DNA from: a virus
Taxonomy: Duplodnaviria > Heunggongvirae > Uroviricota > Caudoviricetes
Strand: one strand, 5' to 3'
Virus record (IMG/VR): IMGVR_UViG_3300034357_000765
DNA length: 64,000 nucleotides
A model generated the notes under the pieces. The model searched no databases. It had not been told where the DNA came from and worked only from the letters and a program-made list of their open reading frames with translations. Below are positions 2,030-64,000 of the stretch, piece by piece. How positions within the stretch are numbered: position 1 is the stretch's first letter; each line of letters starts with the position of its first letter. The position numbers and the translations under genes were made by a program.

Positions 2030-2984
2030 ATCTGAACTTTAAAAATCCATTTTCGGTAAACTTACTTCTATTTTCTTCATTGACTAAAAAGTACTTTCTT
2101 CCAACTATCTCATCATTCTGATACATCACTACCGATATTTCGGCATTGTTCTCAACAAACCTATAAGACCAGCACCCCGGTTCGGTTATGTTATCAACAT
2201 CATTTACTTTAAAATTGACCGTCTTCGCTCCAAAGTTCTTTAAGAAAAGAATGAATTGATTGTTTAGGTTGTTTGTTATCACAACACAAAGGTTGTCGGA
2301 TCCAGAGTATTTGTTTATTAAGCTGTTTTTAAAAAAAATCTCGCTACTCTCATCTATAACCAAAAGTCTTTCCTTTTCTAAAAACTTTTTATAGAAGGTC
2401 ATTTCCAGTGATTCAGAAAGAAAAGAACCGTTTTCAGAAAGCCATTCTACATACTCTTCCACAGTTAGTGGTAACTTTATACTATTCATAAAATACTCTG
2501 GTGATCCTCCAAATATCAATGTCTCATAAAAGTTATAAGTAACCTCTTTACTTTTAAAGAATATCATTTTTTTATCTTCTTCTTTCATTTTGGACTGAAG
2601 ATTATCTAATAATATGACATCTTCCTCATGAAGAAGATTGTCTGCTTCCATAAAAAAGAAGAAATCGTATCCTAAAGACTTTGCAGTTGATATACCATTA
2701 TACATATTCTTACATATAGTAATACCATGTCCTTGTGCATTTACTTGTAGGTAAAATGATTCATTAGACATCCAACTATATGGCGTTAGATTGTATGGCA
2801 TTAAAATATTTTCTTTGTCATAAATATAATAATCCACCTTTTCTTGAATATCCAATGGAACAGGATAGTGTGATACTATCATAAGGTCATATCCCTTACC
2901 TGACAATCTATCTACACATTCGTTTAGACAATCTATATGTTCCTCTGCTTTTGGATATGTGTCTATTATTATCAACTTTTTCAT
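2028..2984 (-). CDS. Glycosylation-locus protein, possible GT-A-like fold
   Basis: Last gene of the GT operon; has IVSHYP and FFMEADN (DxD-like) motifs. Confidence 0.55.
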   Translation of the reverse strand: MKKLIIIDTYPKAEEHIDCLNECVDRLSGKGYDLMIVSHYPVPLDIQEKVDYYIYDKENILMPYNLTPYSWMSNESFYLQVNAQGHGITICKNMYNGISTAKSLGYDFFFFMEADNLLHEEDVILLDNLQSKMKEEDKKMIFFKSKEVTYNFYETLIFGGSPEYFMNSIKLPLTVEEYVEWLSENGSFLSESLEMTFYKKFLEKERLLVIDESSEIFFKNSLINKYSGSDNLCVVITNNLNNQFILFLKNFGAKTVNFKVNDVDNITEPGCWSYRFVENNAEISVVMYQNDEIVGRKYFLVNEENRSKFTENGFLKFR

Positions 2985-3365
2985 TTAATACACCTTATAT
3001 CCTTTTTGTTCTTGAACTCCAGAGTTTGTTATTTGGTTTATTTGGTTCTTTAACTTAAATCTAAGGTCGTTGGTCATGTATACCAGCCTGGCCTTTTGTA
3101 CAAACTCATCATCGAATCTTTTCTGTGACTCTAAATCTCTCAAATCGTCTTCGATTATCCAAAGCTTCAAATTTACATCAATGAGTTCGTCAAACAAATC
3201 TTTCACTTCTTTAGAATCAAGATAATGTTTTGATTTCTCTTCTAATATATCATACTCTTTCCCTATGTGAACAAGTTTTTCAGGATCTGAAATACGATTC
3301 TTTTTAATACTCAATATTGTCAGTTTGTCCAATATCTCACCTATACTTACTTCTACTAAAATCAT
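2985..3365 (-). CDS. DUF6165-like small protein
   Basis: VEVSIGEILDKLTILSIK...LWIIEDDLR...ARLVYMTNDLRFKLKNQIN pattern. The start was moved to the internal ATG (MILVEV) to avoid overlapping the upstream gene. Confidence 0.65.
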   Translation of the reverse strand: MILVEVSIGEILDKLTILSIKKNRISDPEKLVHIGKEYDILEEKSKHYLDSKEVKDLFDELIDVNLKLWIIEDDLRDLESQKRFDDEFVQKARLVYMTNDLRFKLKNQINQITNSGVQEQKGYKVY

Positions 3366-3378
3366 ACTTTTATTGTTT

Positions 3379-5400
3379 TTATAATGTTTGTAAAGATTTA
3401 ACTTTTTCATTTTTGACTTTCATATACTCAACAACTTTATCAAGAACATCTTTATCTTTTATTCCATGATATAACATTATTTTAGATGAGTTGTCACATC
3501 TTAAAAGATCACTTCCCATTATTCCGTTGTTTATTTTAGGATCTCCTTTTATATCGTCGTTTTTCTCAACATATTCAAAAGGTTCAAACTCTAAAGTATT
3601 TAGATATACTCTTCCAAGGTTTTTTGTCGCGTTTCTTTTCCAAAGAACTACATTTATGGCAGTCTCATCAGGAAACGGGAAAAATACTTTTCTCTTTGAA
3701 AGAAGATACTGATTATCACATATAGATTTCCACTCCATTATAAAGTCTCTACATCTTTCAGAAAAGCTTATTATGTTGGAATAAACATATTCCATTGATC
3801 TTTCAGATACTCCAAAATACTTCATCAAAGCACCCTCGTCATATCTTTGTGTTCCTTCAAACGCATAAGGATAAGACCAGTTACCATTTGCCAATAACGG
3901 ATAATCGTTTTTATTCTCAAAGTAATTAATATCAAATCTTCTACCTACTATGATATCAGTATCTAAGAAAAGTGCTTTTCCACCAAATCTATCCAAATGC
4001 TCTAATATAATGTTTGGTTTGTAAAACTCAAAAGTTCTATATCCCGTAGGCTTGCTCGCATCGATAGGTATCTCGATTTTAGTAAGTCTTTCATGTTCTA
4101 TAGAAGACTCAAATCCTATAGTGTAATAAAACATTTTAATGTCTTCTTCCGTGTTCATCAATATCGATTCCACCAATGATTTGGCTTGATACTCGTAGTT
4201 TGCGTCGGAATAGAATATGATAGACTTTATAGTGTCCTTTACAATCTTTTCTCCGCCTAAAAGTCCGTTTGATATCATAGATTCGATGACCATCTCCGGT
4301 GTTATCGATTTGCTACATTCGAATTGTCTTGGAGTTCCTTTGTGGTCAGGACACCAGTTCCAATCTCCTGGATCAAATTTATGTCTAGCCCAACAATCGT
4401 TACAAACACTTTTTTCTATTATTCTTATTACATTGTCTGTGGGTTCCATATACTCTCCTGTAAATCCAGATATAAGTACTACCGGTATATTCACCGCCCA
4501 AGCAAGCCAACTAAGTCCACTACTTATTCCAATAAAGAACTCACAAGAGTAAAGATTATCAATCAAATCATCAAATGAGTTTTCTGGAAGTTTAATAACT
4601 CCTTTTGGATAAAAGTTACCCATATAACCATCTGCCTCTTTAGACATCATAACTACTTCATAACCCTGTAGTAACAAAAAGTCTGTTAACTCTTGCCATC
4701 CTGTTGGGTTGTTCCAATACTTCGTCTGTGCAGTCGAATGCATTCCGATACCAACTCTTTTCTTTTTCTTTTCTACTCGTGATGGTCTCAATATTGGTCT
4801 AATCTCAGAGTATTCCAATCCAAGTATATCTGTAGCCATTTCTAACAATGAAATCTTTGTAGGATTTTTTCTATGCTTACTATAATCAATTTTTTCATTC
4901 ATAAAGAATAAACCTATTCTATAGGTTGCATATATTTCAGGCACGTTTGTTCCTGGTGATACAAACTCAAGATCAGGATATTGGTCTATAAAAAGATTGT
5001 TGTGGAATGTTGAACAAACTACAGTACATTTCCACTTTTTTCTAAATTCGTCAATATAAGGAAACCAAGCCATAGTATCACCAAGTGATTTTGATTCGAG
5101 TGTTATATAAACTCTTTTGCCTGTAGGATTGTACTTTTCAACAAAGACTATTTTACCCGATTCGTCCTTTACGGTACATGTGTATTCTTCTACATATTTT
5201 TTACTGGTTCTACACCACATATTTGATCCAATCTCAGTAGAGTATTCAATCTGACCTTTTGAGTTGGTAAATTCAACTTTGAATTTTCTTTCAAGTTCCG
5301 ACTGAACTTCTAAATAAGCACCTTCGTTGTAGTTGCATATAAATTTTATAGGATTTACATCCTTTATTGGATTAGGATTTTTTTTCAATGCTTTATACAT
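3379..5400 (-). CDS. TibC/AAH-like protein O-heptosyltransferase fused to a C-terminal GT-A (GT8-like) domain
   Basis: SLGDTMAWFPY, HSTAQTKYWNNPTGWQEL, FIGISSGLSWLAWA, and Cys cluster CNDCW..WNWCP..FECSKSI typical of this family. The C-terminal domain has LFLDTDII (DxD) and FPDETAIN. Confidence 0.75.
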   Translation of the reverse strand: MYKALKKNPNPIKDVNPIKFICNYNEGAYLEVQSELERKFKVEFTNSKGQIEYSTEIGSNMWCRTSKKYVEEYTCTVKDESGKIVFVEKYNPTGKRVYITLESKSLGDTMAWFPYIDEFRKKWKCTVVCSTFHNNLFIDQYPDLEFVSPGTNVPEIYATYRIGLFFMNEKIDYSKHRKNPTKISLLEMATDILGLEYSEIRPILRPSRVEKKKKRVGIGMHSTAQTKYWNNPTGWQELTDFLLLQGYEVVMMSKEADGYMGNFYPKGVIKLPENSFDDLIDNLYSCEFFIGISSGLSWLAWAVNIPVVLISGFTGEYMEPTDNVIRIIEKSVCNDCWARHKFDPGDWNWCPDHKGTPRQFECSKSITPEMVIESMISNGLLGGEKIVKDTIKSIIFYSDANYEYQAKSLVESILMNTEEDIKMFYYTIGFESSIEHERLTKIEIPIDASKPTGYRTFEFYKPNIILEHLDRFGGKALFLDTDIIVGRRFDINYFENKNDYPLLANGNWSYPYAFEGTQRYDEGALMKYFGVSERSMEYVYSNIISFSERCRDFIMEWKSICDNQYLLSKRKVFFPFPDETAINVVLWKRNATKNLGRVYLNTLEFEPFEYVEKNDDIKGDPKINNGIMGSDLLRCDNSSKIMLYHGIKDKDVLDKVVEYMKVKNEKVKSLQTL

Positions 5401-6421: not shown

Positions 6422-7792
6422 ATGGAAGACTATAACAAAAATATGGGAAAACTGATAAATCTTAACGAAACCGAAAGTCAAACTTTGTTAGACGAAATTT
6501 TCGCAAACGAAATAGTTGTATTCGAAGACGTTCAAGGATCAAAAATCTGGGCAAACTGGAATGGAAAAGACTTTTCTATCAAACCAAAGTCTATAAGCAA
6601 TCAAGAAATAAATCTTGTCGATTTGGCAATGCAGAATTATTACAATCCTGCAATAGATTATCTTAACTCTTTAGATATAAGAGTAAAATCTCTTTTGAAC
6701 AAAAAATGGTGGTTTTGTTTTGAATACTTTCCGGACAACCAACCAGCAAACATTGAATATGAAAGAATGCCTAAGAACAAACTTGTTTTAAGTGCAATCT
6801 ATAAAAGTGGAAAGTATGATTTTATCATAGATGAGATAGACGAATATGCTAGATTGTTTGATGTAGATATGCTTCCTATAATGTTTCAAGGTGTTTTATC
6901 AGAAAGAATGATAGAAGCCATTAAATACTTCTTAAATACAAGTGAAGAAGATTTAGAATATGTTTTTGGAGAAAAAAACTTTGCTTTCTTCTTTTACAAA
7001 ATACTTAATCCTGCATCAGAAAACTCTTTCTTAATGGAAGACGAATTCCAATCAAACATTGAAAAGTTAATAATTCGATCAAAAATAAAAGATGTTTCTT
7101 TTGAACTTTTAAACCCTCTCTACACAAGAGTAAGTGATTCAAATAGCACCGACTTTGTTGAAATATACACTTTGATATTAGTGAACTTTTTGAATTTCTG
7201 TCAATCGATAGACTTAAAGGATATAAAAATGAAAGGAGAGAAAAAAGATGACATCTATATCTATTTGATGTGTAAACTTTTTAACTTCTATATTGGAGAA
7301 CTAAAACAAGACTTATTAGATTTTGAGTTTATAGTTCCTGAATTTTTTGATAAAGACAAGTTTAAGATAAACACAGAATTGATTGAAAATAAACTTACAA
7401 AAGAATACATAAACGAAAGTCCAAAACTTGAGTACATATTCAAAGTGATATTAGGTTCTTTTAACAAAAAAAGAAAAAAACCAATCGGAGTTTTTACAGA
7501 AAATACCGTAAAACTTTTAAATCTTTTCATAGATGATATCAGTAAACACATTGATAACTATCTAAATAAGATTCATGAACTTGAACTTACGAGGTCTGGT
7601 TTATTAGACTTTGGTGATTTCTTCGATATTCAATACGATACTGATGCGGAAGGTGAAGTTTATCCTGACGTATATGATGAGTTCACAAAAGGTGCTGCGA
7701 CAGACAAAAAGAAAAAAGGTAAAGGTGGTAAAGGACCTGCGATTCCTGAAGAACAAGTAGTAGAAGAAGAACCTAAAGCTCCAATCAAATAA
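6422..7792 (+). CDS. Hypothetical protein with degenerate RNA-ligase/nucleotidyltransferase-like N-terminal domain
   Basis: VFEDVQGSKIW (motif-I-like but lacking Lys), CFEYF, LPIMFQG, IEKLIIR. Start uncertain (6332, 6422 or 6443). Confidence 0.5.
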   Translation: MEDYNKNMGKLINLNETESQTLLDEIFANEIVVFEDVQGSKIWANWNGKDFSIKPKSISNQEINLVDLAMQNYYNPAIDYLNSLDIRVKSLLNKKWWFCFEYFPDNQPANIEYERMPKNKLVLSAIYKSGKYDFIIDEIDEYARLFDVDMLPIMFQGVLSERMIEAIKYFLNTSEEDLEYVFGEKNFAFFFYKILNPASENSFLMEDEFQSNIEKLIIRSKIKDVSFELLNPLYTRVSDSNSTDFVEIYTLILVNFLNFCQSIDLKDIKMKGEKKDDIYIYLMCKLFNFYIGELKQDLLDFEFIVPEFFDKDKFKINTELIENKLTKEYINESPKLEYIFKVILGSFNKKRKKPIGVFTENTVKLLNLFIDDISKHIDNYLNKIHELELTRSGLLDFGDFFDIQYDTDAEGEVYPDVYDEFTKGAATDKKKKGKGGKGPAIPEEQVVEEEPKAPIK

Positions 7793-8007
7793 TGAAATCT
7801 ATAGATTTAAAGATGACCTCTGTTGAAGTAAAAACAGAGACAAGACCTTTGCGTGCTCAATGGACCCGCGAGCTAGCGACTGATTTACAGAGTATGTATG
7901 GTATGGACCATGTCTCTGAAATAGAGGCAACTCTTATGAAAGAATGGAAGGATATTAACAGAACTTCAGGTAGAAGATCAAAGGTTCGCAAAATTTACGA
8001 ATCATGA
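7792..8007 (+). CDS. 71-aa stand-alone fragment resembling the T4-type major capsid protein (gp23) central segment
   Basis: DLKMTSVEVKTETRPLRAQWTRELATDLQSMYGMDHVSEIEATL aligns by eye to gp23 KSRQLKAAYSIELAQDLRAVHGMDADAELSGIL; C-terminal RRSKVRKIY tag. Confidence 0.65.
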   Translation: MKSIDLKMTSVEVKTETRPLRAQWTRELATDLQSMYGMDHVSEIEATLMKEWKDINRTSGRRSKVRKIYES

Positions 8008-26677: not shown

Positions 26678-28345
26678 ATGTCGTTAAAAAAAGATGTGGC
26701 TAAATTCAAGCCGAGAAAAGAACAGAGAGAGGCTTTAGAATTTATAAACTCTGAATATCAAAAGAATAAAATGAACAAGTTTTTCTTGCTCAACCTGCCA
26801 GTCGGTGTGGGAAAATCTCATTTAGCGATGATGATTTCTGATTGGTACAAAACCAATGTTAGTAAGTTTGCAAGAGTCGATGTGATAACCAATAGTAAGA
26901 TTCTACAAGATCAGTACTCTGGAACATACGACTCTATATGTGACCTAAAAGGAAAAGAAAACTATGAGTGTGAACAATATGCTTGTTCTTGTGCATCTGG
27001 TGGTGAGTTCAATCGTTTGAATAAAACCAGTTGTGAAAGTTGTCCTTATGCCAATGCCAGAGAGTCATATATTAGTGGTGGTGTTTCTCTAACAAACTTC
27101 TATTTATACATACTATACGCAATCTATAACCAGAAGCTTATGGAATCAAGAGACGCTCGAGTTCTTATCGTAGATGAATCACATGAGTTTGACGACGTTA
27201 TGTCTGATTTCGTTTCTATAAAGATAACTGAAACTATTGTTAAGAAGTTCAAATTTGCCAACGAATACGAAATCATCAAAAAGCTTAAGGCCGTTTCCGG
27301 TATACCGGGTTACGTAGAGTTTCTTAGATACCTAAATGGTGAGATATTAGAGACTTGTGAGCAGATGGAGAAAGGAATGGGTACCGTACAAAGAAACGCG
27401 AAGGAAGACAAAAGAGATTTGAAGATTTCGAAAGTTTTGAACGTAAAGAACGGAGATGTAAAACTTATGAATCTTGTTTCTGACTTAAAGCAATATCAGC
27501 TTAAGATAGAAGTATTTTTGAAAGAATATAAAGAGAATCCAGACAACTGGGTATTAGAAAGTAACTACAACGAAAAACTTAGACAAAAAGAATTGTCACT
27601 TGAACCAATCTGGGCGTTTGACTACTTAGATAAGTATGTTTTCAGTCACTATGATATGGTATTCCTTATGTCAGGAACTATTTTAGATAAAAATCTTTTC
27701 TGTACTTTAAATGGGGTAGACTCATCAAAAGCAGCTTACTATTCTATAGGATCTCCTTTCCCTGTCAATAATAGACCAATCTATTACATGCCATTAGGTA
27801 AGATGTCTTATAAGAGTAAAGAAGAAACATTTCAAAGATATATTCCTTATATACAGAAACTACTTGATAAATACAAGAATAAGAAGGGTATCATACATAC
27901 CAATTCGTTCGAACTTTCCAACTGGATTCAAAAGTCTATTAAAGACAATCGATTGATATTTCACGACTCGTCTAACAAAGACGAGATGTTGAAACTACAC
28001 TTTGAAAGTGAAGAACCGACAGTTATAGTTTCACCTTCAATGGGAACAGGAGTCAGTTTTGATAATGACCGAGCAAGATTTCAGATAATCGCAAAAATAC
28101 CTTATCCAAGTTTAGGTTCACAAAAGAACAAAATGAGACAAAGCAACAATCCGGAATGGTATTCCTGGAAGACCGTATGTGGAATTGTTCAGATGACTGG
28201 TCGTTCTGTAAGATCTAACACAGATTATGCCGATACTATTATTATTGATGGTGGTTTTGGAGATGTAATCAAACATAGCTCTCATTATTTACCAGATTGG
28301 ATACAAGAAGCAATCAAACGAATAAACATAAAAATAGAAGCATAA
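26678..28345 (+). CDS. DinG/XPD-family SF2 helicase
   Basis: LPVGVGKSH (Walker A), Cys cluster (ECEQYACSC..SCESCPY), VDESH, MSGT, SPSMGTGV, QMTGRSVR. Confidence 0.9.
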   Translation: MSLKKDVAKFKPRKEQREALEFINSEYQKNKMNKFFLLNLPVGVGKSHLAMMISDWYKTNVSKFARVDVITNSKILQDQYSGTYDSICDLKGKENYECEQYACSCASGGEFNRLNKTSCESCPYANARESYISGGVSLTNFYLYILYAIYNQKLMESRDARVLIVDESHEFDDVMSDFVSIKITETIVKKFKFANEYEIIKKLKAVSGIPGYVEFLRYLNGEILETCEQMEKGMGTVQRNAKEDKRDLKISKVLNVKNGDVKLMNLVSDLKQYQLKIEVFLKEYKENPDNWVLESNYNEKLRQKELSLEPIWAFDYLDKYVFSHYDMVFLMSGTILDKNLFCTLNGVDSSKAAYYSIGSPFPVNNRPIYYMPLGKMSYKSKEETFQRYIPYIQKLLDKYKNKKGIIHTNSFELSNWIQKSIKDNRLIFHDSSNKDEMLKLHFESEEPTVIVSPSMGTGVSFDNDRARFQIIAKIPYPSLGSQKNKMRQSNNPEWYSWKTVCGIVQMTGRSVRSNTDYADTIIIDGGFGDVIKHSSHYLPDWIQEAIKRINIKIEA

Positions 28346-37049: not shown

Positions 37050-38504
37050 ATGAGTAAATTCAACACAACCGTAACAAAGTCTAAGACTTTAACAGAAAAC
37101 TTGGCAGGTGGTCAAGCATATGCACAATCTAATGAACTAGCATTGGTATCAATGTTATTGACTTCGTTTGTAAACGACCAATTCTATAAAAGTGGTTCAA
37201 CTACTTTAAAGGATCTTAAAGCTTTGTCTGAAAAGATTAAAGATAAAGAGTTTGTGGCTAAAGCTGCAATCTATGCTAGAGATAAGTTTGGTATGAGATC
37301 AATCACTCACGGATTGGCAGGTGAACTTACGTCTCAACTTACAGGTTTTGATTGGGGTAAGAACTTTTATGATAAAGTAGTTGTTCGTCCAGACGACATG
37401 ACTGAAATCTTATCTTATTACTTAGCCAATAAGACTGATAAGTCTAAACCAAAGTTTCCTAACGCTTTGAAGAAAGGTTTTGCTACTGCGTTTGATAAGT
37501 TTGATGGATACCAATTGGCTAAGTATAAAGGTGAAAACAAAGAAGTTAAACTTGTTGATGTCGTGAACATCGTACACCCTATCCCAACAGATAGAAACCG
37601 TGAGGCACTTAACTTGTTAATCAACGATAAGTTGAAAAACACTGACACTTGGGAAGCAAAACTTTCTGCGGCGGGTCAAACTGCTGAGAATGAAGAAGAC
37701 TTATCTAAGTTGAAGTCTGATGCTTGGGGAGAGTTAATCTCTACAAGAAGAATTGGATACTTTGCTCTTTTGAGAAACTTGAGAAACATCATCACTCAAG
37801 CACCAGATGCAGTAACCGCTGCTTGTGAGTTGTTAGTTGATGAAAACTTAATCAAAAGAAGTCGTGTACTTCCTTTCAGATTCGCTACGGCTTATGAGGA
37901 AATCTCTAAGCTAGGTTCTGACAAAGCGGTGAGAGACGTTTTGGTTGCTATCAACCAAGCACTTGAAGTTTCTTTGGTGAACGTTCCTAAGTTTGATGGT
38001 GAGACGCTTGTTGTTATGGACGTTTCTGGATCTATGTCTGGTAAACCATCTGAAATCGCGAGTTTGTTTGGAGCTATTTTGGCGAAAGTCAACAACTGCG
38101 ACGTTATGACATTCTCAAACGATGCTCAGTATAAGTCTTACAATCCATTGGATTCTGTAATGACAATAAGAGGATCTTTCAGATACTCTGGTGGTGGTAC
38201 TAACTTCAAGGCAATCTTCAACAAAGCCAACAAGAAGTATGACAGAGTGATTATCCTTTCAGACATGCAAGGATGGATGGGTTATACCACTCCAGCATAT
38301 GAGTTCGCTTCTTACAAGAAGAAATTCGATGCTAACCCATTTGTTTACTCTTGGGACTTGGCTGGTCTTGGAACACTTCAGTTCCCAGAACAAAATGTCT
38401 TCGCATTGGCAGGATTCTCTGACAAAGTATTCGACATCATGAAGTTGATGGAGATTGACAAAAAGGCTCTCTTCAATGAGATTAAAGCTATTCAACTTAG
38501 CTAA
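37050..38504 (+). CDS. rsr: Ro60/TROVE-domain RNA-binding protein with C-terminal vWA domain
   Basis: NLAGGQAY, YARDKFGMRS, YQLAKY, GYFALLRNLRN, RVLPFRF, MIDAS-like MDVSGSM, GGGTNF, IILSDMQ, LAGFSDKVF. Confidence 0.92.
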   Translation: MSKFNTTVTKSKTLTENLAGGQAYAQSNELALVSMLLTSFVNDQFYKSGSTTLKDLKALSEKIKDKEFVAKAAIYARDKFGMRSITHGLAGELTSQLTGFDWGKNFYDKVVVRPDDMTEILSYYLANKTDKSKPKFPNALKKGFATAFDKFDGYQLAKYKGENKEVKLVDVVNIVHPIPTDRNREALNLLINDKLKNTDTWEAKLSAAGQTAENEEDLSKLKSDAWGELISTRRIGYFALLRNLRNIITQAPDAVTAACELLVDENLIKRSRVLPFRFATAYEEISKLGSDKAVRDVLVAINQALEVSLVNVPKFDGETLVVMDVSGSMSGKPSEIASLFGAILAKVNNCDVMTFSNDAQYKSYNPLDSVMTIRGSFRYSGGGTNFKAIFNKANKKYDRVIILSDMQGWMGYTTPAYEFASYKKKFDANPFVYSWDLAGLGTLQFPEQNVFALAGFSDKVFDIMKLMEIDKKALFNEIKAIQLS

Positions 38505-40804: not shown

Positions 40805-41206
40805 ATGTCTATTAAAGTAAAAAACTCTCAATTAAACGACGATACAATCACAGCATTAAATATGTTGATTGATTTGGACATCAATGCACAATCTGCCTTT
40901 AGGCTTATGAGAATAATAAAAGAACTTTCTTCTATATTAGATGACAAAATCAAAATGGAAAAAAGAATTCTCGACAAATGGACCGCAAAAGACGAGGCTG
41001 GAAATCCAACTGACGCAAAAGATGAAGCTGGAAATATAATCGAAGGTGCTGTAAACATATCAGATTCGACTGCATTTTCTAAGGAAATGGAAACACTATT
41101 AGATATAGAAAATGAGATTCCATATGAAAAGATAAAATTTGAAGAGTTGAATCTTCAGACTGCAAAGGTTAAAGACCTTATAAAGCTAGAGTTTCTTTTT
41201 GACTAA
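40805..41206 (+). CDS. Hypothetical protein (helical; possibly a tail assembly chaperone)
   Basis: 133-aa ORF. Confidence 0.65.
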   Translation: MSIKVKNSQLNDDTITALNMLIDLDINAQSAFRLMRIIKELSSILDDKIKMEKRILDKWTAKDEAGNPTDAKDEAGNIIEGAVNISDSTAFSKEMETLLDIENEIPYEKIKFEELNLQTAKVKDLIKLEFLFD

Positions 41207-41288
41207 TGCCACTACCACACTACACACACTTTATTTTTAATGCCACACATATTAAAAGAAAGCGAAAGATAAGTAATATTTTTAAATT

Positions 41289-41315
41289 AAAAGCCTGATA
41301 AAACTATCAGGCTTT
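41289..41315. terminator. Intrinsic terminator
   Basis: AAAAGCCTGATA-AAC-TATCAGGCTTTT. Confidence 0.8.
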
Positions 41316-44716: not shown

Positions 44717-46708
44717 ATGCAAATAATAGATGGATTCACAGTAAATACTGCACAACCAATAGATGATAGATTAGTCACTTCAGGTACTGCCTCTAGAAAT
44801 GCCATTGTTTATAAATACAATGGTCTTAGAGTATATGATATAGTGGCAAACCAACCATATGTTTGGAATGGTACTATATGGACAAGTGAAAATAGTAGTA
44901 CGGTTACAATAACAGGAACAACTACAACAGGTTATATACCTACTTTTGATACTAGTACTTCTCAAATAACAAATAGTTTAATATCACAGTTTACTGTTGG
45001 TCCTACTGAGAAATATGTAAATATCGCCACCGGAAACTACACACTACATGCTTTAAAAGTTGCTGGTATTGTTCAAGCCACCGGCTTTAGAGGATTAGGA
45101 ACAGATATTACAAACATTTTAGGATCGAACATAACTGGTCCTATCGCAGTAAGTAAACTATCTCCAAAAGATAGTCCAACTACTGGCGAAATATACATAT
45201 TGAAATCAGGAACTTCCACTCCAGAGTGGATGGCACTAAGTTCTATTCCTGCAAATCAAATTCCTTCTGCAGCACCTCAACCAGATACTTTTTCAAATTC
45301 TACAAATGTTTTGTATGTACCGTTTGTTTCAACAACTGGTGGTGTAACTAAATACTATCAAACAACTGGTGGAGATTCTTTTAAATTCATACCAAGAGTA
45401 GGTACGACTGAGGGTGCACAGCTTCAAGTTCCTAATGGAAGTGAGGCAAATCCATCTGTTGCATTTTCTACTAATAATAGCACAGGAATCTATAGAGCTG
45501 GATGGAATATGCTTGGTATATCGGCAGCTGGTAAAGAAAAGATGAGATTTACAGAAAATGGAGTACTTATAAAGTCTACTTCTAACACCGAATCAACATT
45601 GAAAGTTCTTAATAGTGGAGGAAGACCATTCACCGCACTATATGGACTAAACGGTGATTCTATAATGAGTGGATCTATTGGATTTTCAGGTTTATTTAAT
45701 GGTGGTCCATTAAGAGATCTTATTATAGAAAATCTTGCAGGTACTGCCACGGTTACATATCCTCAGACAACTGCACATTTTGATGCTAATATTTCTGCAC
45801 CTACTGATGGAAGAAGACATATGATAAATTTGGACACACATGGTCGTACTATAATCGCGACAAACGTTGGTTCTGTTGTTAACACATTCACTGGTGGTGT
45901 TGCAGGAAGTTCTGGATCTCCATTTCTAAATGGTGCTTACGGATGTGACATATACAACTCAAATCCTTCAATGGGACATGGTTTGATTGTTAGATCAGGT
46001 GGTGGGCCCAATACGGTTTCTGCAAGATTTGATAATGGTTCTAAAACTATTGCTTACTTTACCGATAGAGGACTTCAAATATTATCAGGTAGTGAAAACG
46101 CACCATCTATATGTTTTGATAGTGATAAGGCACAAGGTAAAAATACAGGATTCTTTTTAGAGTCTATAGGAAAGATTGGAATTGTTGCCAATAACAAAAA
46201 AGTACTTACTATATCAGATACAGAAATAAGACTTCCTAAAGTCTCTAACCTAGCTTATATATTTGGTGATAGTACTAGAATAGAAGGAACTACAAGAACA
46301 AACAGCCTTGAGATCTATAGACCTACTACGATTGGTGGTTATGCCATCTGTCACTTCTATAGTGATATTGGTGGTACAAAGGCCGCCAAAGCTTATATCT
46401 GGCCCGATGGAACTTACTACAGACTTTCTGATAGAAATCAAAAAGAAAACATTATTCCACTTGAATATGGTCTTAATGAAGTATTGAGACTTAACCCTGT
46501 TACCCATACTTGGCTTTATAGTGACTCTACAACACCTTCTATAGGTTTGATTGCACAAGAAGTTGAGGAAGTTCTTAAAGAGCTTGTAAACACTTCTATG
46601 GATGGTGATAGAGAGATAAAGGCATTAGACTACAATGGAATAATACCTGTCTTAATAAAGTCTATACAAGAGCTAAACAAAAAGATAGAAATCTTAGAAG
46701 CAAAATAA
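44717..46708 (+). CDS. Tail fibre with C-terminal intramolecular chaperone (peptidase S74)
   Basis: SDRNQKENI...LNPVTHTW...IGLIAQEVEEV...LDYNGIIPVLIKSIQEL coiled-coil end; N-terminal QPIDDRLV. Confidence 0.85.
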   Translation: MQIIDGFTVNTAQPIDDRLVTSGTASRNAIVYKYNGLRVYDIVANQPYVWNGTIWTSENSSTVTITGTTTTGYIPTFDTSTSQITNSLISQFTVGPTEKYVNIATGNYTLHALKVAGIVQATGFRGLGTDITNILGSNITGPIAVSKLSPKDSPTTGEIYILKSGTSTPEWMALSSIPANQIPSAAPQPDTFSNSTNVLYVPFVSTTGGVTKYYQTTGGDSFKFIPRVGTTEGAQLQVPNGSEANPSVAFSTNNSTGIYRAGWNMLGISAAGKEKMRFTENGVLIKSTSNTESTLKVLNSGGRPFTALYGLNGDSIMSGSIGFSGLFNGGPLRDLIIENLAGTATVTYPQTTAHFDANISAPTDGRRHMINLDTHGRTIIATNVGSVVNTFTGGVAGSSGSPFLNGAYGCDIYNSNPSMGHGLIVRSGGGPNTVSARFDNGSKTIAYFTDRGLQILSGSENAPSICFDSDKAQGKNTGFFLESIGKIGIVANNKKVLTISDTEIRLPKVSNLAYIFGDSTRIEGTTRTNSLEIYRPTTIGGYAICHFYSDIGGTKAAKAYIWPDGTYYRLSDRNQKENIIPLEYGLNEVLRLNPVTHTWLYSDSTTPSIGLIAQEVEEVLKELVNTSMDGDREIKALDYNGIIPVLIKSIQELNKKIEILEAK

Positions 46709-47454: not shown

Positions 47455-47775
47455 ATGAAAAGAATCAAAAGATTTAACGAAAGTGAACAAGTTGACGTAT
47501 CGACAGAAAGAGTTGATGAGATATTAGTCGATTTGAAAGAACTTACATCTACTTTAGATGATAAGAAAAAGATGATAGATTCTTTGATTAGCGAGTTAAA
47601 CAACTATAAAAACAAATCCGACAAAGGAAACGATCAAATAGACGATTCAATCGCGGCCCTTCAGGTTATAATGAAAGATTTAGAAAACTCTACAGACAAA
47701 ACAGACACCGTTATTGGAAACCTTCAGAGTTACAACGACGATGGTAGAAAATATCTTTATACTGAAAACAAATAA
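47455..47775 (+). CDS. Small coiled-coil candidate head-internal protein
   Basis: MKRIKRFNESE; heptad pattern. Confidence 0.7.
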   Translation: MKRIKRFNESEQVDVSTERVDEILVDLKELTSTLDDKKKMIDSLISELNNYKNKSDKGNDQIDDSIAALQVIMKDLENSTDKTDTVIGNLQSYNDDGRKYLYTENK

Positions 47776-47796
47776 TACTATACGGATATAATAAGT

Positions 47797-47949
47797 ATGG
47801 CAGTGATTAATGATGATGGTGACTATCTAAGTCCGATATTCGAAATAGATTGGAAAGCCATACGAAACCTTTTAAGAAAAGAAAAAATAGAAAGAATATA
47901 TGGCGATTTGGGACAATCACTCGGAAACGACGAAGAAAACAATTCTTGA
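47797..47949 (+). CDS. 50-aa micro-ORF with LRKEKIERIY tag
   Basis: Manual translation: MAVINDDGDYLSPIFEIDWKAIRNLLRKEKIERIYGDLGQSLGNDEENNS. Confidence 0.55.
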   Translation: MAVINDDGDYLSPIFEIDWKAIRNLLRKEKIERIYGDLGQSLGNDEENNS

Positions 47950-48031
47950 AGGAATTAGAGCATTTTCTAAGATGTTGAGAAAAGACAAACGAAAAGAAAA
48001 GATAAACAATGTTTTGTGCTCCAGATCCTAA
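47900..48031 (+). CDS. 43-aa micro-ORF with KRKEKINNVL tag
   Basis: Manual translation: MAIWDNHSETTKKTILEGIRAFSKMLRKDKRKEKINNVLCSRS. Confidence 0.5.
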   Translation: MAIWDNHSETTKKTILEGIRAFSKMLRKDKRKEKINNVLCSRS

Positions 48032-48041
48032 TCTAGTCGTA

Positions 48042-48182
48042 ATGGGAGGCCCTTCCAGTAATAAATGGGAAAATATGAAATTCAACCCCAATATCGGAAC
48101 AATGTTTAGGTCCCAGAAAAGAATCAAAAAGATAAGAAAGATATTTGATGGGAAAATTCAAAAAGAAGAAGTTCGGTTCTGA
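48042..48182 (+). CDS. 46-aa micro-ORF with KRIKKIRKIF tag
   Basis: Manual translation: MGGPSSNKWENMKFNPNIGTMFRSQKRIKKIRKIFDGKIQKEEVRF (alternative start at 48075). Confidence 0.5.
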   Translation: MGGPSSNKWENMKFNPNIGTMFRSQKRIKKIRKIFDGKIQKEEVRF

Positions 48183-48252
48183 GTTTAGAAATATACTTAG
48201 AATAATAAAAATAGAAAGAATATTCAATGCTGATAGGAAAGAAAGGAAATAG
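48148..48252 (+). CDS. 34-aa micro-ORF with LRIIKIERIF tag
   Basis: Manual translation: MGKFKKKKFGSEFRNILRIIKIERIFNADRKERK. Confidence 0.5.
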   Translation: MGKFKKKKFGSEFRNILRIIKIERIFNADRKERK

Positions 48253-48460
48253 TCCGGGAGTAGTCTGGGCTCCTTATCTAATACAAAGTACAACACCTGC
48301 AATAGTAGAAAGCAATTTCTCACCAAGAATGACACTTAAAAGTAGATATTCAACTACAACCGTAAACAACGGATTCTATATGGATTTCTGGATGAAGAAC
48401 TGGAGAAGAAAATCAAGAATAGAAAAGATATACAAAATAGAAAAGCCTACTGAAGAGTAG
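48227..48460 (+). CDS. 77-aa fragment resembling the gp23 major capsid C-terminus, with RKSRIEKIY tag
   Basis: GKKGNSPGVVWAPYL..IVESNFSPRMTLKSRYS aligns by eye to gp23 GYKG..AGIYYAPYV..DPKNFQPVMGFKTRYG. Confidence 0.65.
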   Translation: MLIGKKGNSPGVVWAPYLIQSTTPAIVESNFSPRMTLKSRYSTTTVNNGFYMDFWMKNWRRKSRIEKIYKIEKPTEE

Positions 48461-48466
48461 GCTTTT
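48441..48466. terminator. Bidirectional intrinsic terminator
   Basis: AAAAGCCTACT-GAAG-AGTAGGCTTTT. Confidence 0.85.
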
Positions 48467-48483
48467 CTGATATAATAATACTT

Positions 48484-49026
48484 TTATTTAGTATATTTAA
48501 GCTTATAAAGAGTTTTGTAAACCAGAACAACAATATCATCTATTACACTATGTAGGTGAGTATCTTCTATATTGATACATTTTCTTTCTTCTTTGACAAA
48601 TCTTGCTAACTCATTAAAATATTCAATAGTATCTTTTGATTTAGTATCTTTAGTATCAATCACATCATACTCTTCGATAATACCATATTGACCTTGATAT
48701 GTCTCAATCACATCATCGATTAAACTTAAAACACCATCGTAGTATTCACCTAATGCAATATGTTTTGCATGTGAACCCATATCACCATTTACTTGTAAGT
48801 GATAAATGTGTGCCATTTCTCTAGATTCAAACAATTTAGAGAAAAATTTACCTGGGTGTGAACCTTCTCCTAATATTTGTGGTCTTTCAACACCACTTTC
48901 TTGTTCTGCCTGAGCTTGAGCCTGTACTTGTGCACCTACTGCTTGTGGTAGGTTTGCTACAGACATTTCGTCTTGCTCGAATATTCTTCTTATTTTAGGT
49001 TTTTTTAAGTCTGAAAATTTCTTCAT
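48484..49026 (-). CDS. Ferritin-like helical-bundle protein
   Basis: AHIYHLQ...HAKHIALGEYYD...DDVIETYQG...LYKLKY pattern. Confidence 0.6.
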   Translation of the reverse strand: MKKFSDLKKPKIRRIFEQDEMSVANLPQAVGAQVQAQAQAEQESGVERPQILGEGSHPGKFFSKLFESREMAHIYHLQVNGDMGSHAKHIALGEYYDGVLSLIDDVIETYQGQYGIIEEYDVIDTKDTKSKDTIEYFNELARFVKEERKCINIEDTHLHSVIDDIVVLVYKTLYKLKYTK

Positions 49027-50217: not shown

Positions 50218-50424
50218 ATGAAGTATATTAAAAAATACATCAAGTTTTTTGAAACTACAATGGTTGCACCAGAAGTTGCTAAGAAAACTTTGCTATCAGA
50301 TAACTTGACACTTAGTCACAAAGGAGAAGAAAGCACAGAATCAGAAGTAGTAGAAAGATTTTCCAAAATATACAGCGGATTGTCAGAAGATGAAAAGTCT
50401 GAAATCAATTCATACTTTAAATAA
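50218..50424 (+). CDS. Small candidate head-internal protein
   Basis: MKYIKKYIKFFE; TAATATATA upstream. Confidence 0.65.
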   Translation: MKYIKKYIKFFETTMVAPEVAKKTLLSDNLTLSHKGEESTESEVVERFSKIYSGLSEDEKSEINSYFK

Positions 50425-58702: not shown

Positions 58703-61700
58703 ATGCAAGAATCAAGATATGGCTACACAAATATAACAAGCGAGTATTTAATATATCCGTTTAGCTCGCCTATTGGCTATAATTTCAACTATACTGGAAC
58801 CTATTCTAAATATTCCATAATAGACAAATTCTACGTAAACTCTTTGGTTAAGCCAGTAAAAAGGCTTTATTATGGTGGTGCCGAATGGTCTAATGTTGGA
58901 ACTATCTCACTTACTTTTAGTCTTACTAACTTAGCATATACTTTTGCAGATGAGATAATCTTCAAGACTGCAAGTATGCCAGCTGTTGCTGTTTCTGTAT
59001 CACATCCAACTTATGATAGAATAGATGCCATAGTTATAAATGAAGATGGTGTTGTAAAAATAAAACAAGGAACTCCTGCTCCGATTCCAAAAAAACCGGT
59101 ATTAGCAGAAGATGAGGTTCTTATCCAATACGCTCTTATAAAGAAATCTGTCGATAAGGTAGGAACTTTAGAAAAAGTATATGAAAACAATGGTCAGTGG
59201 GCCACATCAGCATACCAGATATCAGGAACTTTAGATCCACTGGACGTTAATTTTCAATCTACTACAAATCAATATACTTCTACATACTGCATAGCAGCAA
59301 ACACAGACTATAGAACAGGACTTAACTTTACAAAATCTGTGGGTACTATCAAAAGAAGTGATTATGCATCTCTTTCTATGAGAGTTAGGTTCAATAGTGT
59401 ATTGGATCACAATAGATTTTTAAGTGTTCAAATATATGGTACTTCAAGTAACTACGTGGGTACTGCATCTGGTAACACAATCAATTTGATGGCATATGGT
59501 CTTGAACCAAATGTAATCAATGAATGGCAACATGTTGTCGTTCCTACAATCAAGTTTGGAACAAAAGTAGAAACCATAAAGGGACTTACCGTTAGAATGA
59601 TAGGTGGTGCAAGTGCATCAAAAACATCTTGGGATTTAGACTACGTTCTTTTCCAAACAGGTGTCGACTATGACGAATATATGGATCCTAGTAATTGTGG
59701 TCCATGTAACGGATCTACGACCGTTTCTGGTGGTGTTGGAGGTGGAACCTTTTCATTAACTATACAAGACTATTTGACTGGAGAAGAGTTCACTGATATA
59801 AACAAGATAATATTTAGAGGAAACACCGTAGTTGTAAACCATGCACTTGGACTTACTGCAACAGGGGTTACTGTTACGGGACAGACTCCAGAGGTTGTTG
59901 TTTGGATTCCAGCTCCTAACTACGTTTCTTTTTTCAATCCTAACATAGATGCAACTGGTGCAGATAGATATGTTTCTTTACCAGCTACTCAATCTTATTC
60001 ATCTATTAGTACACCTGGTACTTTTGGAACAGGAGATTGGAGTATGTTAACTGACTTTCAGGCAAACTCTACATCAGTAGGAACTACAAGAAAGACTAAA
60101 AATAATACTACTAACTTAACTTCGTTTGAGTTTTCACCATTTGTTAGCTCTTCTGCATTTTCATGTTCTTCACAAGTAACTACTATAAAGTTTGAAGTTT
60201 TTAAAGAAGATGAATCGACTGCAATCAGAACAATGACAAAAACATTAAATGTTGCAACATGTGGTCAAACATATACAACAGACGATAGTTCTCTAACTGG
60301 AGTAAGTCTTATATTAGGTGTTTTCTCAAACGATCAAGACAAATTCAAAGTTGCCAGTCTTACTGCTAAGGTAAATTGCAATACGCTATTTCCAAATGGT
60401 GGTAGATTCAAATGTAGAATAACACATGATAATGGTGTGGATGGAACTATCATAAAAGACACAATGAGTTTCTTTTATGATAGTGATGCTTTACCAACAA
60501 GTGCAAGTGTTGGATCTGTTACTTTTGATGAAAAGGTTGCGGTTCTTAAAAAGTTTTCAGGAGTTGCTTATTATAACTCAGGTTCTACATTTGCAATGAC
60601 TGCATCAAACATAGACCTTTTGAATGATTTAACATTTCCAACTACTAAACAAATAGACTTTTTTCCAAACAACCTTTCTATGATTAATTCCGGAGTAAAC
60701 TTCTTAAATGGACATGCAGATGGAACAAAATCCGGTGTTGGTGTTGCAATAACTGGTTGGGGAATAAACTGGGACAAAAGTGGATTGACATTCTCAAGAT
60801 CAGGTGCGATAAATGTTGTTATGAACAATGATAATAGCACACTCTTTCCTGGAATAGCTACCGTTGGTTATATACCTGGTTTTTCACCACACACAACCAA
60901 CACTTTGGATACCAGTAAGGATTCAAGCATTACCGTAAGACTTTTTGACTACGGAAATCCTGATATTACTCTTATATCCTCTGCTAAAAAGACATTAATA
61001 GATACCGATGTTGCTGGTGCAACTACTACGGTGAGTAACCCTATAGATAGTGAAAATAACAGACTTTCTTTTTCTGGTGTTTTAGCTGGCACCGGTACTA
61101 GTGTATTTGATTCTAATATACTATTAGGAGCTGCACCAAACACTGCAGAACTTCAGTATATCTTTGGAAGAATAATATATCCACAACACAATTTCACAAC
61201 TTATATGCCATACTATAACTTTGGAACAAGTTGTAACTATTCTGCTCTTGCCGGATCGACAGATACCTTTAATATGTTAACCGTTGCTTTGAACATCGCA
61301 GGAACAACTACACCATATACAACTACTGATTATAGATGGTACGTTACACAGTATCAAAAAGCAAGTGGGCAATCCTCTACTGCGGGTCAATTCGTAATAG
61401 AATCTAACATAACTGAGGCAGACTTTCATTGTCAAAAAGGAGTTTCTTCTGTTAGTGGAAACGAAGATGCCATAATAATGATAGGATTTGATGGATCTGG
61501 TGCAAATTCAGCACCAAATAAATACCTTTTCTTGACAGGAAACACAGGAACCTATGGTGGAAGAACAAATGGTTCTGTAAACTATTTTGGCTCTAGTGGA
61601 AACTCAACCATTTCTTTTACGATGGGTTATGTTTCTGCACCTTGTATTAAATTTTGGCTCTTCATAGGATTTAAAAGTACTACAAGAGGAAAAGCACTTT

Positions 61701-61732
61701 ATTTAAGCGATATTCAGTTTACCGGTGTTTAA
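58703..61732 (+). CDS. Large tail/baseplate structural protein with carbohydrate-binding-like module
   Basis: RIDAIVINEDG...GTPAPIP.KP fibre motif; EWQHVVVP..F CBM-like segment; 1009 aa. Confidence 0.7.
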   Translation: MQESRYGYTNITSEYLIYPFSSPIGYNFNYTGTYSKYSIIDKFYVNSLVKPVKRLYYGGAEWSNVGTISLTFSLTNLAYTFADEIIFKTASMPAVAVSVSHPTYDRIDAIVINEDGVVKIKQGTPAPIPKKPVLAEDEVLIQYALIKKSVDKVGTLEKVYENNGQWATSAYQISGTLDPLDVNFQSTTNQYTSTYCIAANTDYRTGLNFTKSVGTIKRSDYASLSMRVRFNSVLDHNRFLSVQIYGTSSNYVGTASGNTINLMAYGLEPNVINEWQHVVVPTIKFGTKVETIKGLTVRMIGGASASKTSWDLDYVLFQTGVDYDEYMDPSNCGPCNGSTTVSGGVGGGTFSLTIQDYLTGEEFTDINKIIFRGNTVVVNHALGLTATGVTVTGQTPEVVVWIPAPNYVSFFNPNIDATGADRYVSLPATQSYSSISTPGTFGTGDWSMLTDFQANSTSVGTTRKTKNNTTNLTSFEFSPFVSSSAFSCSSQVTTIKFEVFKEDESTAIRTMTKTLNVATCGQTYTTDDSSLTGVSLILGVFSNDQDKFKVASLTAKVNCNTLFPNGGRFKCRITHDNGVDGTIIKDTMSFFYDSDALPTSASVGSVTFDEKVAVLKKFSGVAYYNSGSTFAMTASNIDLLNDLTFPTTKQIDFFPNNLSMINSGVNFLNGHADGTKSGVGVAITGWGINWDKSGLTFSRSGAINVVMNNDNSTLFPGIATVGYIPGFSPHTTNTLDTSKDSSITVRLFDYGNPDITLISSAKKTLIDTDVAGATTTVSNPIDSENNRLSFSGVLAGTGTSVFDSNILLGAAPNTAELQYIFGRIIYPQHNFTTYMPYYNFGTSCNYSALAGSTDTFNMLTVALNIAGTTTPYTTTDYRWYVTQYQKASGQSSTAGQFVIESNITEADFHCQKGVSSVSGNEDAIIMIGFDGSGANSAPNKYLFLTGNTGTYGGRTNGSVNYFGSSGNSTISFTMGYVSAPCIKFWLFIGFKSTTRGKALYLSDIQFTGV

Positions 61733-61779
61733 TAAGATTCAAATTTAATATATAATAGATAAAAATATACATTTAAGAT

Positions 61780-64000
61780 ATGCCAATAATAAATCCAGAT
61801 AGTAAGCTAACAGGTGCCTTTTTTCACTGGTTGGGTAAGGTAAACACAAAAGATGGAAACTATGCAGGTAGTGAAAACTACAAAAGTGCTCATAATGTTA
61901 GATCCAATGAAGTTTGGATGGACGATGTTCCTGTTGCTTATACTTTTGCTTCTGCTTCTGCATATTCTGACGCATATCCAAACATAATAAGAAAAGTAGG
62001 AACGGTTAGTTCTGTCGGTAATGACGGATTAGGAAATGACCTTGTAGGACAACCTGGTTATCTATATCCACTTCATAATACTTTATACCAATCTTGGTTT
62101 CTTGACACTGGTACACCTAGTTTAGGAAATGCTTTTGGTGAGTTTATTCCTTCAGATGAATGGGTAAAACCAATAATAAATATATCAGATATTCCCGATT
62201 TATTAGGAGCACCTTCTACAGGATATGCTGTTATATTATATGCACCTACTACTGCAGGAAAATTCAATTCTGTATCATATGACAATGCATATTATGACAT
62301 AGATACTTTTTCTGGAATATTCAGATTCAACGTTGGTAAAACACCTATTGACTTAGGAAATGGTTCCGGTTATACAATGGATAAGGCGGCGTTTGAGGCT
62401 GCTAGAAATATCGGAGTAGCTGACGCAATAAACTTTATAAAGAGTGTAAATGGTGGTCTTAGAGCAATCGCATATCAATATGTAGGACAAACATTAGATA
62501 CCTTCACAAAAGGTGCTACCGGTGCGACTGGGTCTATTGGTGCTACCGGTGCGACTGGGTCAGATGGTACATCGGGTACTTCTGGAGTCAGTGATAGATA
62601 CAGAAGTATAAACACACTTACTATCGATTCTTCACAACCTTCATGGACACTTTCTATAGAAGCAGGACTTGCATATAGTCCAGGACAATCTATAATACTT
62701 GCAATCGATAGTCTAAACTATATAGAGGCAACGGTAACTTCTTATAATATAGGAACTGGTACTATGAGTGCCACAAAAGGAAACACTTTACACCCACTTT
62801 CAAGTGGTGTTGTAGGAACTCCTACAAACGCTTCTGCAACATGGATTGTAAACTTAGATGGTGCATCTGGTGGAGACGGTTCTTCAGGAACAAGTGGAAC
62901 ATCAGGAGTTGACGGAACAAGTGGAACATCAGGAGTTGACGGAACATCAGGAACTACGGGAACATCAGGAACAAGTGGAACATCAGGAGTTGACGGAACA
63001 AGTGGAACATCAGGAATTGACGGAACATCAGGAACATCAGGAGTTGACGGAACAAGTGGAACATCAGGAACTTCTGGAATCGATGGAACATCAGGAACAT
63101 CAGGAGTTGATGGAACATCAGGAACTTCCGGAGTTGATGGAACATCAGGAACTTCTGGAATCGATGGAACATCAGGAACTTCCGGAATCGATGGAACATC
63201 AGGAACTTCTGGAGTTGACGGAACATCAGGAACTTCCGGAATCGATGGAACATCAGGAACATCAGGAACATCAGGAACATCGGGTACAACAGGAACATCG
63301 GGTACAACAGGAACATCAGGAACTTCTGGATATGCAGGAGACAAATACAGATATGACTATAGTGGTAGTATAACACCTACAGACCCTTTGAACCTTACAA
63401 TAGGAACCGAATATGCATACAGTCCCGCTCAATCGATAATAATATCAAAAGACACGAACAACTTTATACAAGGAACCGTATCATCATACGATGCAGGAAC
63501 AGGACAAATATCCATAGTTGGAGTCACTACAACCGGAACAATGACCGGAACTACATTTGTAGTGAATTTAGATGGTGCATCTGGTGGTGACGGTTCTTCA
63601 GGAACATCAGGAGTTGACGGAACAAGTGGAACATCGGGAGTTGACGGAACAAGTGGAACATCTGGGACTACGGGAACATCTGGAACTACGGGAACATCAG
63701 GAACATCAGGAGTTGATGGAACATCAGGAACTTCCGGAGTTGATGGAACATCAGGAACTTCTGGAATCGATGGAACATCAGGAACTTCCGGAATCGATGG
63801 AACATCAGGAACTTCCGGAATCGATGGAACATCTGGAACTAGTGGTGTTGATGGAACATCAGGAACAAGCGGTATAGGAATTCCTTCAGGTGGTACATCA
63901 GGTCAGGTTTTGTCTAAGATAGATGGAACAGACTACAATACACAATGGGTAGACCAAACTGGTGGATCTGGTGGTGGACCAACATTCTCACTTACAGTTG
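61780..64000 (+). CDS. Collagen-like (Gly-Thr-Ser repeat) tail fibre, truncated at the right window edge
   Basis: Manual translation from ATG 61780 ([12 protein letters not shown]...) stays open to the end; GATG and GTSG(V/I)DGTSG triplet repeats. Confidence 0.85.
62870..63870 (+). repeat. Gly-X-Y coding tandem repeats (ggaacatca / ggaacttcc / ggagttgat)
   Basis: 9-nt-period repeats in two blocks (about 62870-63330 and 63585-63870) separated by a duplicated spacer domain. Confidence 0.9.

Follow-up and report, generated by a model that had tools for sequence, protein, structure and literature searches.

An array of overlapping, tagged micro-genes in a very large T4-like phage, with a capsid-protein fragment as its last member

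Five overlapping micro-ORFs on the plus strand of phage DNA, lying between a conserved anchor gene (47455-47775) and a convergent DUF5856 gene (48484-49026), are on evolutionary evidence real protein-coding genes, and each joins a short body to a shared basic tag. Judged from sequence, this array of tagged micro-genes is real and conserved, and it appears to be undescribed; the tag, the array, and tagged fragments of core proteins have no Pfam or PHROG entry, and no paper on them was found in a literature search with subscription journals mostly outside its coverage. The array is read here, with a probability of roughly 0.4, as a separately transcribed, translationally coupled operon of peptides, each made of a body and a basic helix, that would serve as decoys for host sensors.

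The array was studied in a window of 64,000 nt, meaning the whole stretch of DNA analysed, from the virus record IMGVR_UViG_3300034357_000765 (IMG/VR; Caudoviricetes), and in relatives comprising 300-480 kb IMG/VR contigs and the 634,780-bp record LR745206.1. The window is a 33% GC fragment with a helicase, a ribonucleotide reductase, and a Ro60-like gene, and its source is a very large T4-like phage, whose host is probably a member of the Bacteroidota. Shine-Dalgarno motifs precede none of the 48 window genes and are at or below background in four relatives, as expected with such a host, since Bacteroidota do not use Shine-Dalgarno sequences (PMC6847099). The largest genomes described by Al-Shayeb et al. 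belong to the Mahaphage clade, whose predicted hosts are Bacteroidetes (PMC7162821). Elsewhere in the window, the Ro60/TROVE-like RNA-binding protein (37050-38504, plus strand; PHROG 850) follows a 700-bp ORF-poor gap, and a fibre-like protein is encoded at 44717-46708 (plus strand), with a Peptidase_S74 chaperone domain on its orthologues. In the region 61700-64000, GC climbs to 0.42 and the ORFs listed with standard starts are all short and repetitive; a long collagen-like repeat frame probably extends here past the edge of the window.

Architecture and conservation of the five reading frames

All five ORFs lie on the plus strand, and gene callers find just some of them. ORF1 (family A; 47797-47949, 50 aa) has an acidic body, a tag at 47875-47901, and an unselected tail, while ORF2 (family B; 47900-48031, 43 aa) carries its tag at 47990-48016. 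ORF3 (family C; 48009-48182, 57 aa) has a Gly-Gly-Pro body and a tag at 48120-48146; ORF4 (family D; 48148-48252, 34 aa) has the shortest body, of only 17 residues, ahead of a tag at 48199-48225; and ORF5 (family E; 48227-48460, 77 aa) bears the capsid-protein copy at residues 2-47 and a tag at 48407-48433. For ORF3, the original prediction gave the correct stop (48182) and a start at 48042 (46 aa) that is corrected here to the ATG at 48009; all close relatives retain this ATG, as do distant homologues, and several carry another residue in place of the Met at 48042. With this start every ORF overlaps the next and the frame advances by +1 at each junction, so that an arrangement first described as mostly overlapping, in alternating frames, becomes one in which all four junctions overlap with the same frame step.

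The pattern R-x-x-K-[ILV]-x-x-[ILV] is matched in each of the five ORFs, whose stops also agree with those first proposed. In ORF5 the conserved tag register spans residues 61-69 (RKSRIEKIY) and lies three residues ahead of the pattern match first noticed, and in ORF1 the Lys at tag position 4 is Thr in 8 of 13 sequences. The view that five such tags in a row are unlikely to be chance is borne out: k-let-preserving shuffles (k=2-5, 4,000 each) gave a mean of 0.11-0.17 matches and a maximum of 3, other 664-bp stretches of the window hold at most two matches each, and chance in A-rich DNA was rejected as an explanation because five tags in 664 bp were never reached in the 16,000 shuffles. Two further candidates were discarded. 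A DNA repeat or cassette site is contradicted by the tags, which show just weak two-copy repeats and synonymous change within them, and a structured non-coding RNA by a folding z of -1.35 once the terminator is left out and by Rfam matches that are sub-threshold and fall on the terminator only.

Selection was assessed in 12 close relatives with 80-89% DNA identity, omega being derived by per-column parsimony on mosaic sequences, so that the p-values that follow are approximate. Omega was 0.23 for ORF1 (p 2e-8), 0.28-0.36 for ORF2 (p <= 0.004), 0.29 for ORF3 (p 8e-7), 0.15-0.17 for ORF4 (p <= 5e-4), and 0.20 for ORF5, with p <= 0.004 for each of the five, whereas the shifted frames in the same relatives gave 0.7-2.1 and contained many stop codons. 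The indels in these sequences, of 3, 27, 30, and 33 nt, are all multiples of three. All five frames are thus kept, at an omega of 0.15-0.36, in the comparison that had been proposed as a check. Selection on the bodies is as strong as that on the tag, which overturns the notion that the peptides are essentially tag carriers. Past the tag, the ORF1 tail has an omega of 2.0 and a variable stop that yields peptides of 42-54 aa; being unselected, it indicates that the working ORF1 peptide ends at the tag, and the tails of the other ORFs are too short for omega to be judged. One relative has a stop inside the ORF1 tag (L007), which shortens this ORF.

A TATAAT promoter-like box (47787-47792, plus strand) stands 4 nt ahead of the first ATG. 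The same box or a one-base variant precedes the first ATG by 3-6 nt in about 20 relatives, regardless of which family (A, B, F, or E) leads the array, and it is mostly missing where the array is empty; the array message would probably be leaderless or nearly so. At the other end, a perfect 13-bp hairpin (48439-48468) contains the ORF5 stop and is common to the convergent DUF5856 gene. The single terminator originally proposed at the end of the array is thus present as a hairpin, albeit one scored as a terminator on the minus strand only; its symmetry suggests that it is probably a two-way terminator that also serves the plus strand. Taken with the conservation of the frames, dN/dS, and the in-frame indels, the promoter-like box and the terminator hairpin support the proposal of an operon of translated mini-peptides that bear the tag.

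The borders of the locus are conserved as well. The upstream anchor gene (47455-47775, plus strand, 106 aa), which marks the locus, has 312 homologue clusters and was found at 46 viral loci, and the ferritin/Dps-like DUF5856 gene (48484-49026, minus strand) downstream is the usual right border. N-termini of the MK-x-[ILF]-K-x-F type, resembling the T4 capsid-targeting sequence, occur on many window genes, among them 47455-47775, 48484-49026, 50218-50424, and others.

Across about 60 related loci the array holds zero to six members drawn from eight families, always in a fixed order in which the capsid-fragment family comes last. The compositions ABCDE and E alone were each seen 14 times and no recognised member 13 times, in addition to BFE, FE, F, BE, GHBCDE, GHCDE, BCE, and CE, and roughly one locus in four lacks any array member. 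Members have been gained and lost among loci. Families C and E extend to phages with only 62-64% identity in the anchor gene, among them LR745206.1 (634 kb; 64%), where both stand beside the anchor copy; family C forms 11 small-protein clusters at 50% identity and was found at this locus only in the cases checked. Read from these sequences, the variation of the array is old and selected. The array site, downstream of the anchor gene, is occupied in some relatives (L037/L038, L019, L031, and L045) by an unrelated larger gene of 189-271 aa, which marks it as a general insertion hot spot. In another locus (L004, 2067-2963, minus strand), an inserted 298-aa ORF with repeated Cys-x-x-Cys motifs, homing endonuclease-like, separates the anchor gene from the gene upstream of it.

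The tag and the bodies that carry it

The tag was surveyed in four near-complete relatives and falls into two subtypes. An acidic subtype, R-[DEN]-x-K-[IL]-x-x-[IL]-[LG], is found at the C-terminus of 22-72 ORFs per genome with a median length of 100-120 aa, whereas a basic subtype, [RK]-x3-R-[KIM]-x-[KST]-I-x-[KRN]-I-[FY], is carried by 7-14 ORFs per genome, all shorter than 100 aa except for one spurious 154-aa frame. The net charge of the basic tag is +5 compared with +1 for the acidic one, and R1, K4, I5, and I8 are common to both. All five array ORFs have K or I at position 2 of the tag, which is of the basic subtype, and do not fit the acidic C-terminal pattern; their tags end in I-[FY] in four ORFs and in V-L in ORF2. 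As a helix, the tag has a net charge of +2 to +6 and a hydrophobic moment of 0.17-0.64. Its Ile codons are nearly always ATA, and Arg1 varies synonymously only (AGA, CGA, AGG, CGT). In the window, the acidic tag stands at the C-terminus of five unrelated proteins (11831, 15665, 17845, and 18880 on the plus strand, and 55942 on the minus strand), and 26678-28345 contains an internal acidic-tag match.

Basic-tag ORFs are often tandem elsewhere in these genomes, with the same overlap geometry, and one genome (G001) has ORFs of 20-21 aa that consist of little more than the tag. Counted from the eighth tag codon, the following ATG falls at -5, +1, or +4 in 50 of 60 array junctions, so that the A-rich DNA of a tag doubles as the region from which the following gene starts; this would explain the tiling of the ORFs. 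Among 49 basic tags, 25 have no start nearby.

The clearest assignment of a body is that of ORF5. Profile comparison and modelling identify it as the C-terminal strand and long beta-hairpin of a gp23-type major capsid protein (MCP): residues 2-47 align with residues 497-544 of the clade MCP (hhalign 97%, E 4e-11, 43% identity), a segment that forms a short strand and a long beta-hairpin (508-523/530-543) in the clade MCP model, which itself matches T4 gp23 at E 7e-16. This long hairpin we take to lie in the P domain of the HK97 fold. Direct matches are weaker, with E 1.2e-4 and 22.1 bits against Pfam Gp23 (PF07068), below the curated cut-off of 24.4, E 0.004 against PHROG 138, and a weak alignment (E about 1) of residues 8-43 with residues 379-414 of T4 gp23*. 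ORF5 homologues form 69 clusters, and the residues invariant among them are those invariant across MCPs; some have internal deletions. Full MCPs of 560-590 aa are located elsewhere in the relatives, and ORF5, with 77 aa and an AlphaFold2 model that is disordered save for one tag helix at 48-68 (low confidence, pLDDT 58), does not qualify as a full HK97 fold. The tag is the least variable part of ORF5. In the window it comes after the capsid fragment; in homologues from five loci (L001, L002, L022, L026, L028) it interrupts the hairpin turn, and L064 has a different, acidic tag in its place. The tag is thus portable and depends on neither a free terminus nor a gene behind it.

For the bodies of ORF1-4, nothing significant was found in Pfam, PHROGs, PDB sequences, a tblastn search of cultured phages, the ESM Atlas, or four whole proteomes, nor for family C in a 1.8-billion library, and profile-profile scores were no higher than those of reversed controls. 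At such lengths only fragments with a conserved motif are recognisable, so that a missing match is weak evidence either way. Some leads may be mentioned. ORF1 shows a likeness to portal protein, and ORF3 a hint of an adenylate-kinase P-loop (E 0.086) or of a tail-tube N-terminus. ORF2 has a weak likeness (E 0.048-0.24) to the C-terminal region of the protease/scaffold protein; its family fills the first five ranks when 6,360 small ORFs are compared with the scaffold C-terminal profile, a pairing that was picked post hoc, and the likeness is absent from the profile-profile ranking. An 8-residue NrdA match in ORF4 (E 0.014) is inside the range of reversed controls.

Tagged pieces of hallmark proteins also occur outside the array. 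Five near-complete relatives each contain, besides the MCP, 2-5 extra short Gp23 matches to different segments, mostly in small ORFs. In the window, a second tagged capsid fragment (7792-8007, plus strand, 71 aa) combines Gp23 positions 132-187 with a basic tag and scores above the Pfam cut-off (E 1.3e-9). It is 41-47% identical to canonical T4-like MCPs and matches the clade's own MCP at 12 of 45 residues, and orthologues stand at the same locus in four relatives; being of a foreign type, it fits a generic mimic better than a leftover duplicate. A 30-aa ORF (41206-41298, plus strand), missed by ORF calling with a 60-aa limit, starts with a stretch resembling the tail-tube N-terminus, followed by a basic tag, and its best matches in two proteomes are suggestive ones to tail-tube N-termini (E 0.8 and 9). 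In L064 (IMGVR_UViG_3300027896_000352; 2175-4936, plus strand), an independent tandem array of at least seven small ORFs repeats another acidic tag, which contains DPYGEE and is joined to pieces of prohead protease, tail tube, and capsid (N-terminus, middle, and C-terminus).

A broader comparison asked which of 143 core-family profiles best matched each body in four relatives. The best match lay in a nine-family hallmark set, fixed after motifs had been spotted by eye, for 14 of 42 bodies with the basic tag. The corresponding figures were 4 of 77 with the acidic tag, 8 of 150 without a tag, and 8 of 252 after shuffling (3-5% of controls; p <= 1e-4); the comparison pools orthologues from four genomes and reflects about eight independent families. 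The 14 basic-tag bodies comprise capsid (6), protease (3, one of which is really capsid), terminase (2), sheath (2), and helicase (1) pieces. By E-value alone the excess is small, at 8/47 versus 7/78 for E<0.01.

Several further observations concern single micro-ORFs. A conserved pair of adjacent tagged micro-ORFs (G002, 181803-182157; G005, 207209-207554) has bodies resembling a helicase Walker B and a terminase Walker A, and a conserved tagged micro-ORF in four genomes (G002, 127466; G001, 209152; G005, 146518; G003, 165670) has a body that by eye resembles motif B of family B polymerases. The polymerase-like bodies, and gp32-like ones also seen by eye, were unconfirmed by profile searches, and the micro-fragments were also missed when the relatives were scanned with Pfam for terminase, polymerase, and gp32. 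Another tagged micro-ORF (G002, 166192; G005, 190956) has a sheath N-terminal motif before its tag and a terminase-like motif after it, and is an apparent two-fragment mosaic. A small ORF matching capsid residues 37-88 (E 4e-5) without a basic tag occurs at L151 (1158, plus strand; G001).

Candidate functions of the array

In the reading put forward here, each micro-protein would consist of a short body and a basic docking helix; the tag would dock all members on one partner or on the membrane, and the bodies would be mimic epitopes. The peptides would thereby, without setting them off, either occupy the immune sensors or quality-control factors by which the host recognises conserved core phage proteins or keep these away from their site of action. 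This reading is favoured by the finding that the folds sensed by Avs receptors include those of capsid, portal, tail, terminase, polymerase, and helicase, with the tail tube among the ligands (PMC13581612). The same sensors, however, read folded cores through large shape-complementary interfaces, and the three MCP sensors bind the A-domain interface (PMC13581612). It thus counts against a decoy role that ORF5 copies mainly the long hairpin rather than the A domain, and that its body is modelled, at low confidence, as disordered.

The alternative that survives best, although unlikely, is that the bodies are dominant-negative fragments that bind the matching proteins (capsid, terminase, sheath, or helicase) or folding intermediates of a co-infecting T4-like phage, while the tag tethers them away, so that competitors would be excluded. 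Some fragments are indeed closer to the proteins of other phages than to those of the clade, and the sharing of invariant residues between ORF5 and MCPs would be expected if the partner were a capsid fold. Yet ORF5 is closely enough related to the clade's own MCP (43% identity) that self-poisoning would have to be avoided, and catalytic-motif scraps of 15-25 residues would make poor assembly partners.

Two other possibilities are both improbable, and to a similar degree. The peptides might be regulators of the phage's own assembly or replication, with a timing or chaperone-like role and recruited by the tag to where replication or assembly takes place, which would suit a locus set among conserved genes with capsid-targeting-like N-termini and the head-related nature of both ORF5 and the possible scaffold piece in ORF2; the emptiness of the array in about a quarter of loci and the foreign type of some fragments speak against it. 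Alternatively, as first suggested, the peptides might compete for the receptor of the genome-wide tag and titrate it, the bodies merely tuning stability. The four residues shared by both subtypes, the near tag-only ORFs, and the 17-residue body of ORF4 agree with such competition, but titration needs no set of five to six different conserved bodies. The suggestion is accordingly weakened by the selection on the bodies, the capsid piece in ORF5, and the use of the basic subtype instead of the common acidic tag.

It is more doubtful still that the tag is a by-product of the A-rich start region of the downstream gene, read as R, K, and I codons. The offsets at 50 of 60 junctions, the lack of Shine-Dalgarno motifs (0/48), and the ATA codons for Ile all point that way; nevertheless, no same-strand gene follows the ORF5 tag, which is the most constant part of that protein, about half of the basic tags have no nearby start, the tag is mid-gene in at least five relatives, and Arg1 changes only synonymously. 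As the sole cause, this origin is largely refuted. Least probable of all is a nursery of new genes, as originally entertained, or a graveyard, in which debris or newborn genes pick up the tag and drift: the member number of 0-6, the truncated ORF1, and the internal deletions in ORF5 homologues would suit it, but low omega, indels in multiples of three, the fixed family order, and the spread of C and E to distant phages refute it at this locus, unless an ancestral function was lost very recently.

Relation to known systems and implications

The array resembles several known systems and departs from each. Like T4 gp23 (PF07068; PDB 5VF3, 8GMO, 6UZC), ORF5 aligns with gp23* and the clade MCP, but it comprises about 46 of 560 residues, is free-standing, fused to a basic helix, and far from the head genes, and no HK97 fold is possible. 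The T4 Gol peptide, an N-proximal region within gp23 that triggers defence in the Lit/EF-Tu system, is likewise a short capsid-derived peptide, whereas ORF5 is a separate gene with a copy of the C-terminal hairpin. Eukaryotic microProteins and dominant-negative fragments are likewise small, come from part of a larger protein, and are kept by selection; unlike them, the tagged phage pieces are motif-sized scraps, not interaction domains, and all share an added tag.

The tag has its own precedents. The T4 capsid-targeting sequence and the C-terminal clamp-binding epitopes of gp43, gp55, and gp33 are short peptides that serve unrelated proteins as an address or docking signal; the phage tag differs in sequence, needs neither terminus, and can sit in a hairpin turn. 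The membrane-targeting amphipathic helices of MinD and FtsA are short and basic, with Ile and Phe on one face, and the tag, predicted to be a short basic helix, is compatible with them in charge and hydrophobic moment. Unlike in MinD and FtsA, the fixed Arg and the pattern shared with the near-neutral acidic subtype suggest that the reader of the tag would be a protein.

The set of proteins sensed by Avs/STAND receptors overlaps the tagged copies of this clade (capsid, terminase, and helicase, and probably tube and polymerase), but their ligands are full folds, and protease and sheath pieces are not among them (PMC13581612). No phage-encoded fragment decoys were found in the text of that paper (PMC13581612).

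Bacterial sensors read most core phage proteins, and a question on which these findings may bear is how phages whose core folds cannot change escape them. More tentatively than for the array itself, huge Bacteroidota phages may encode a mimic library of 7-14 micro-proteins per genome that neutralises host pattern-recognition receptors or rival phages. Every member would carry a conserved piece of a hallmark protein on the shared, portable docking helix, ordered tandem operons would gain and lose such members, and the bodies of ORF1-4 would correspond to triggers not yet known. If true, these peptides would be effectors of a new kind, directed against defence or against other phages, and the fragments would chart the epitopes that matter. 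The tagged fragments are candidate peptides of 30-80 residues that can cheaply be expressed together with a sensor and the corresponding trigger. Should the decoy idea prove wrong, a real gene class overlooked by gene callers would still stand, together with the division of a genome-wide tag into two subtypes with different cargo.
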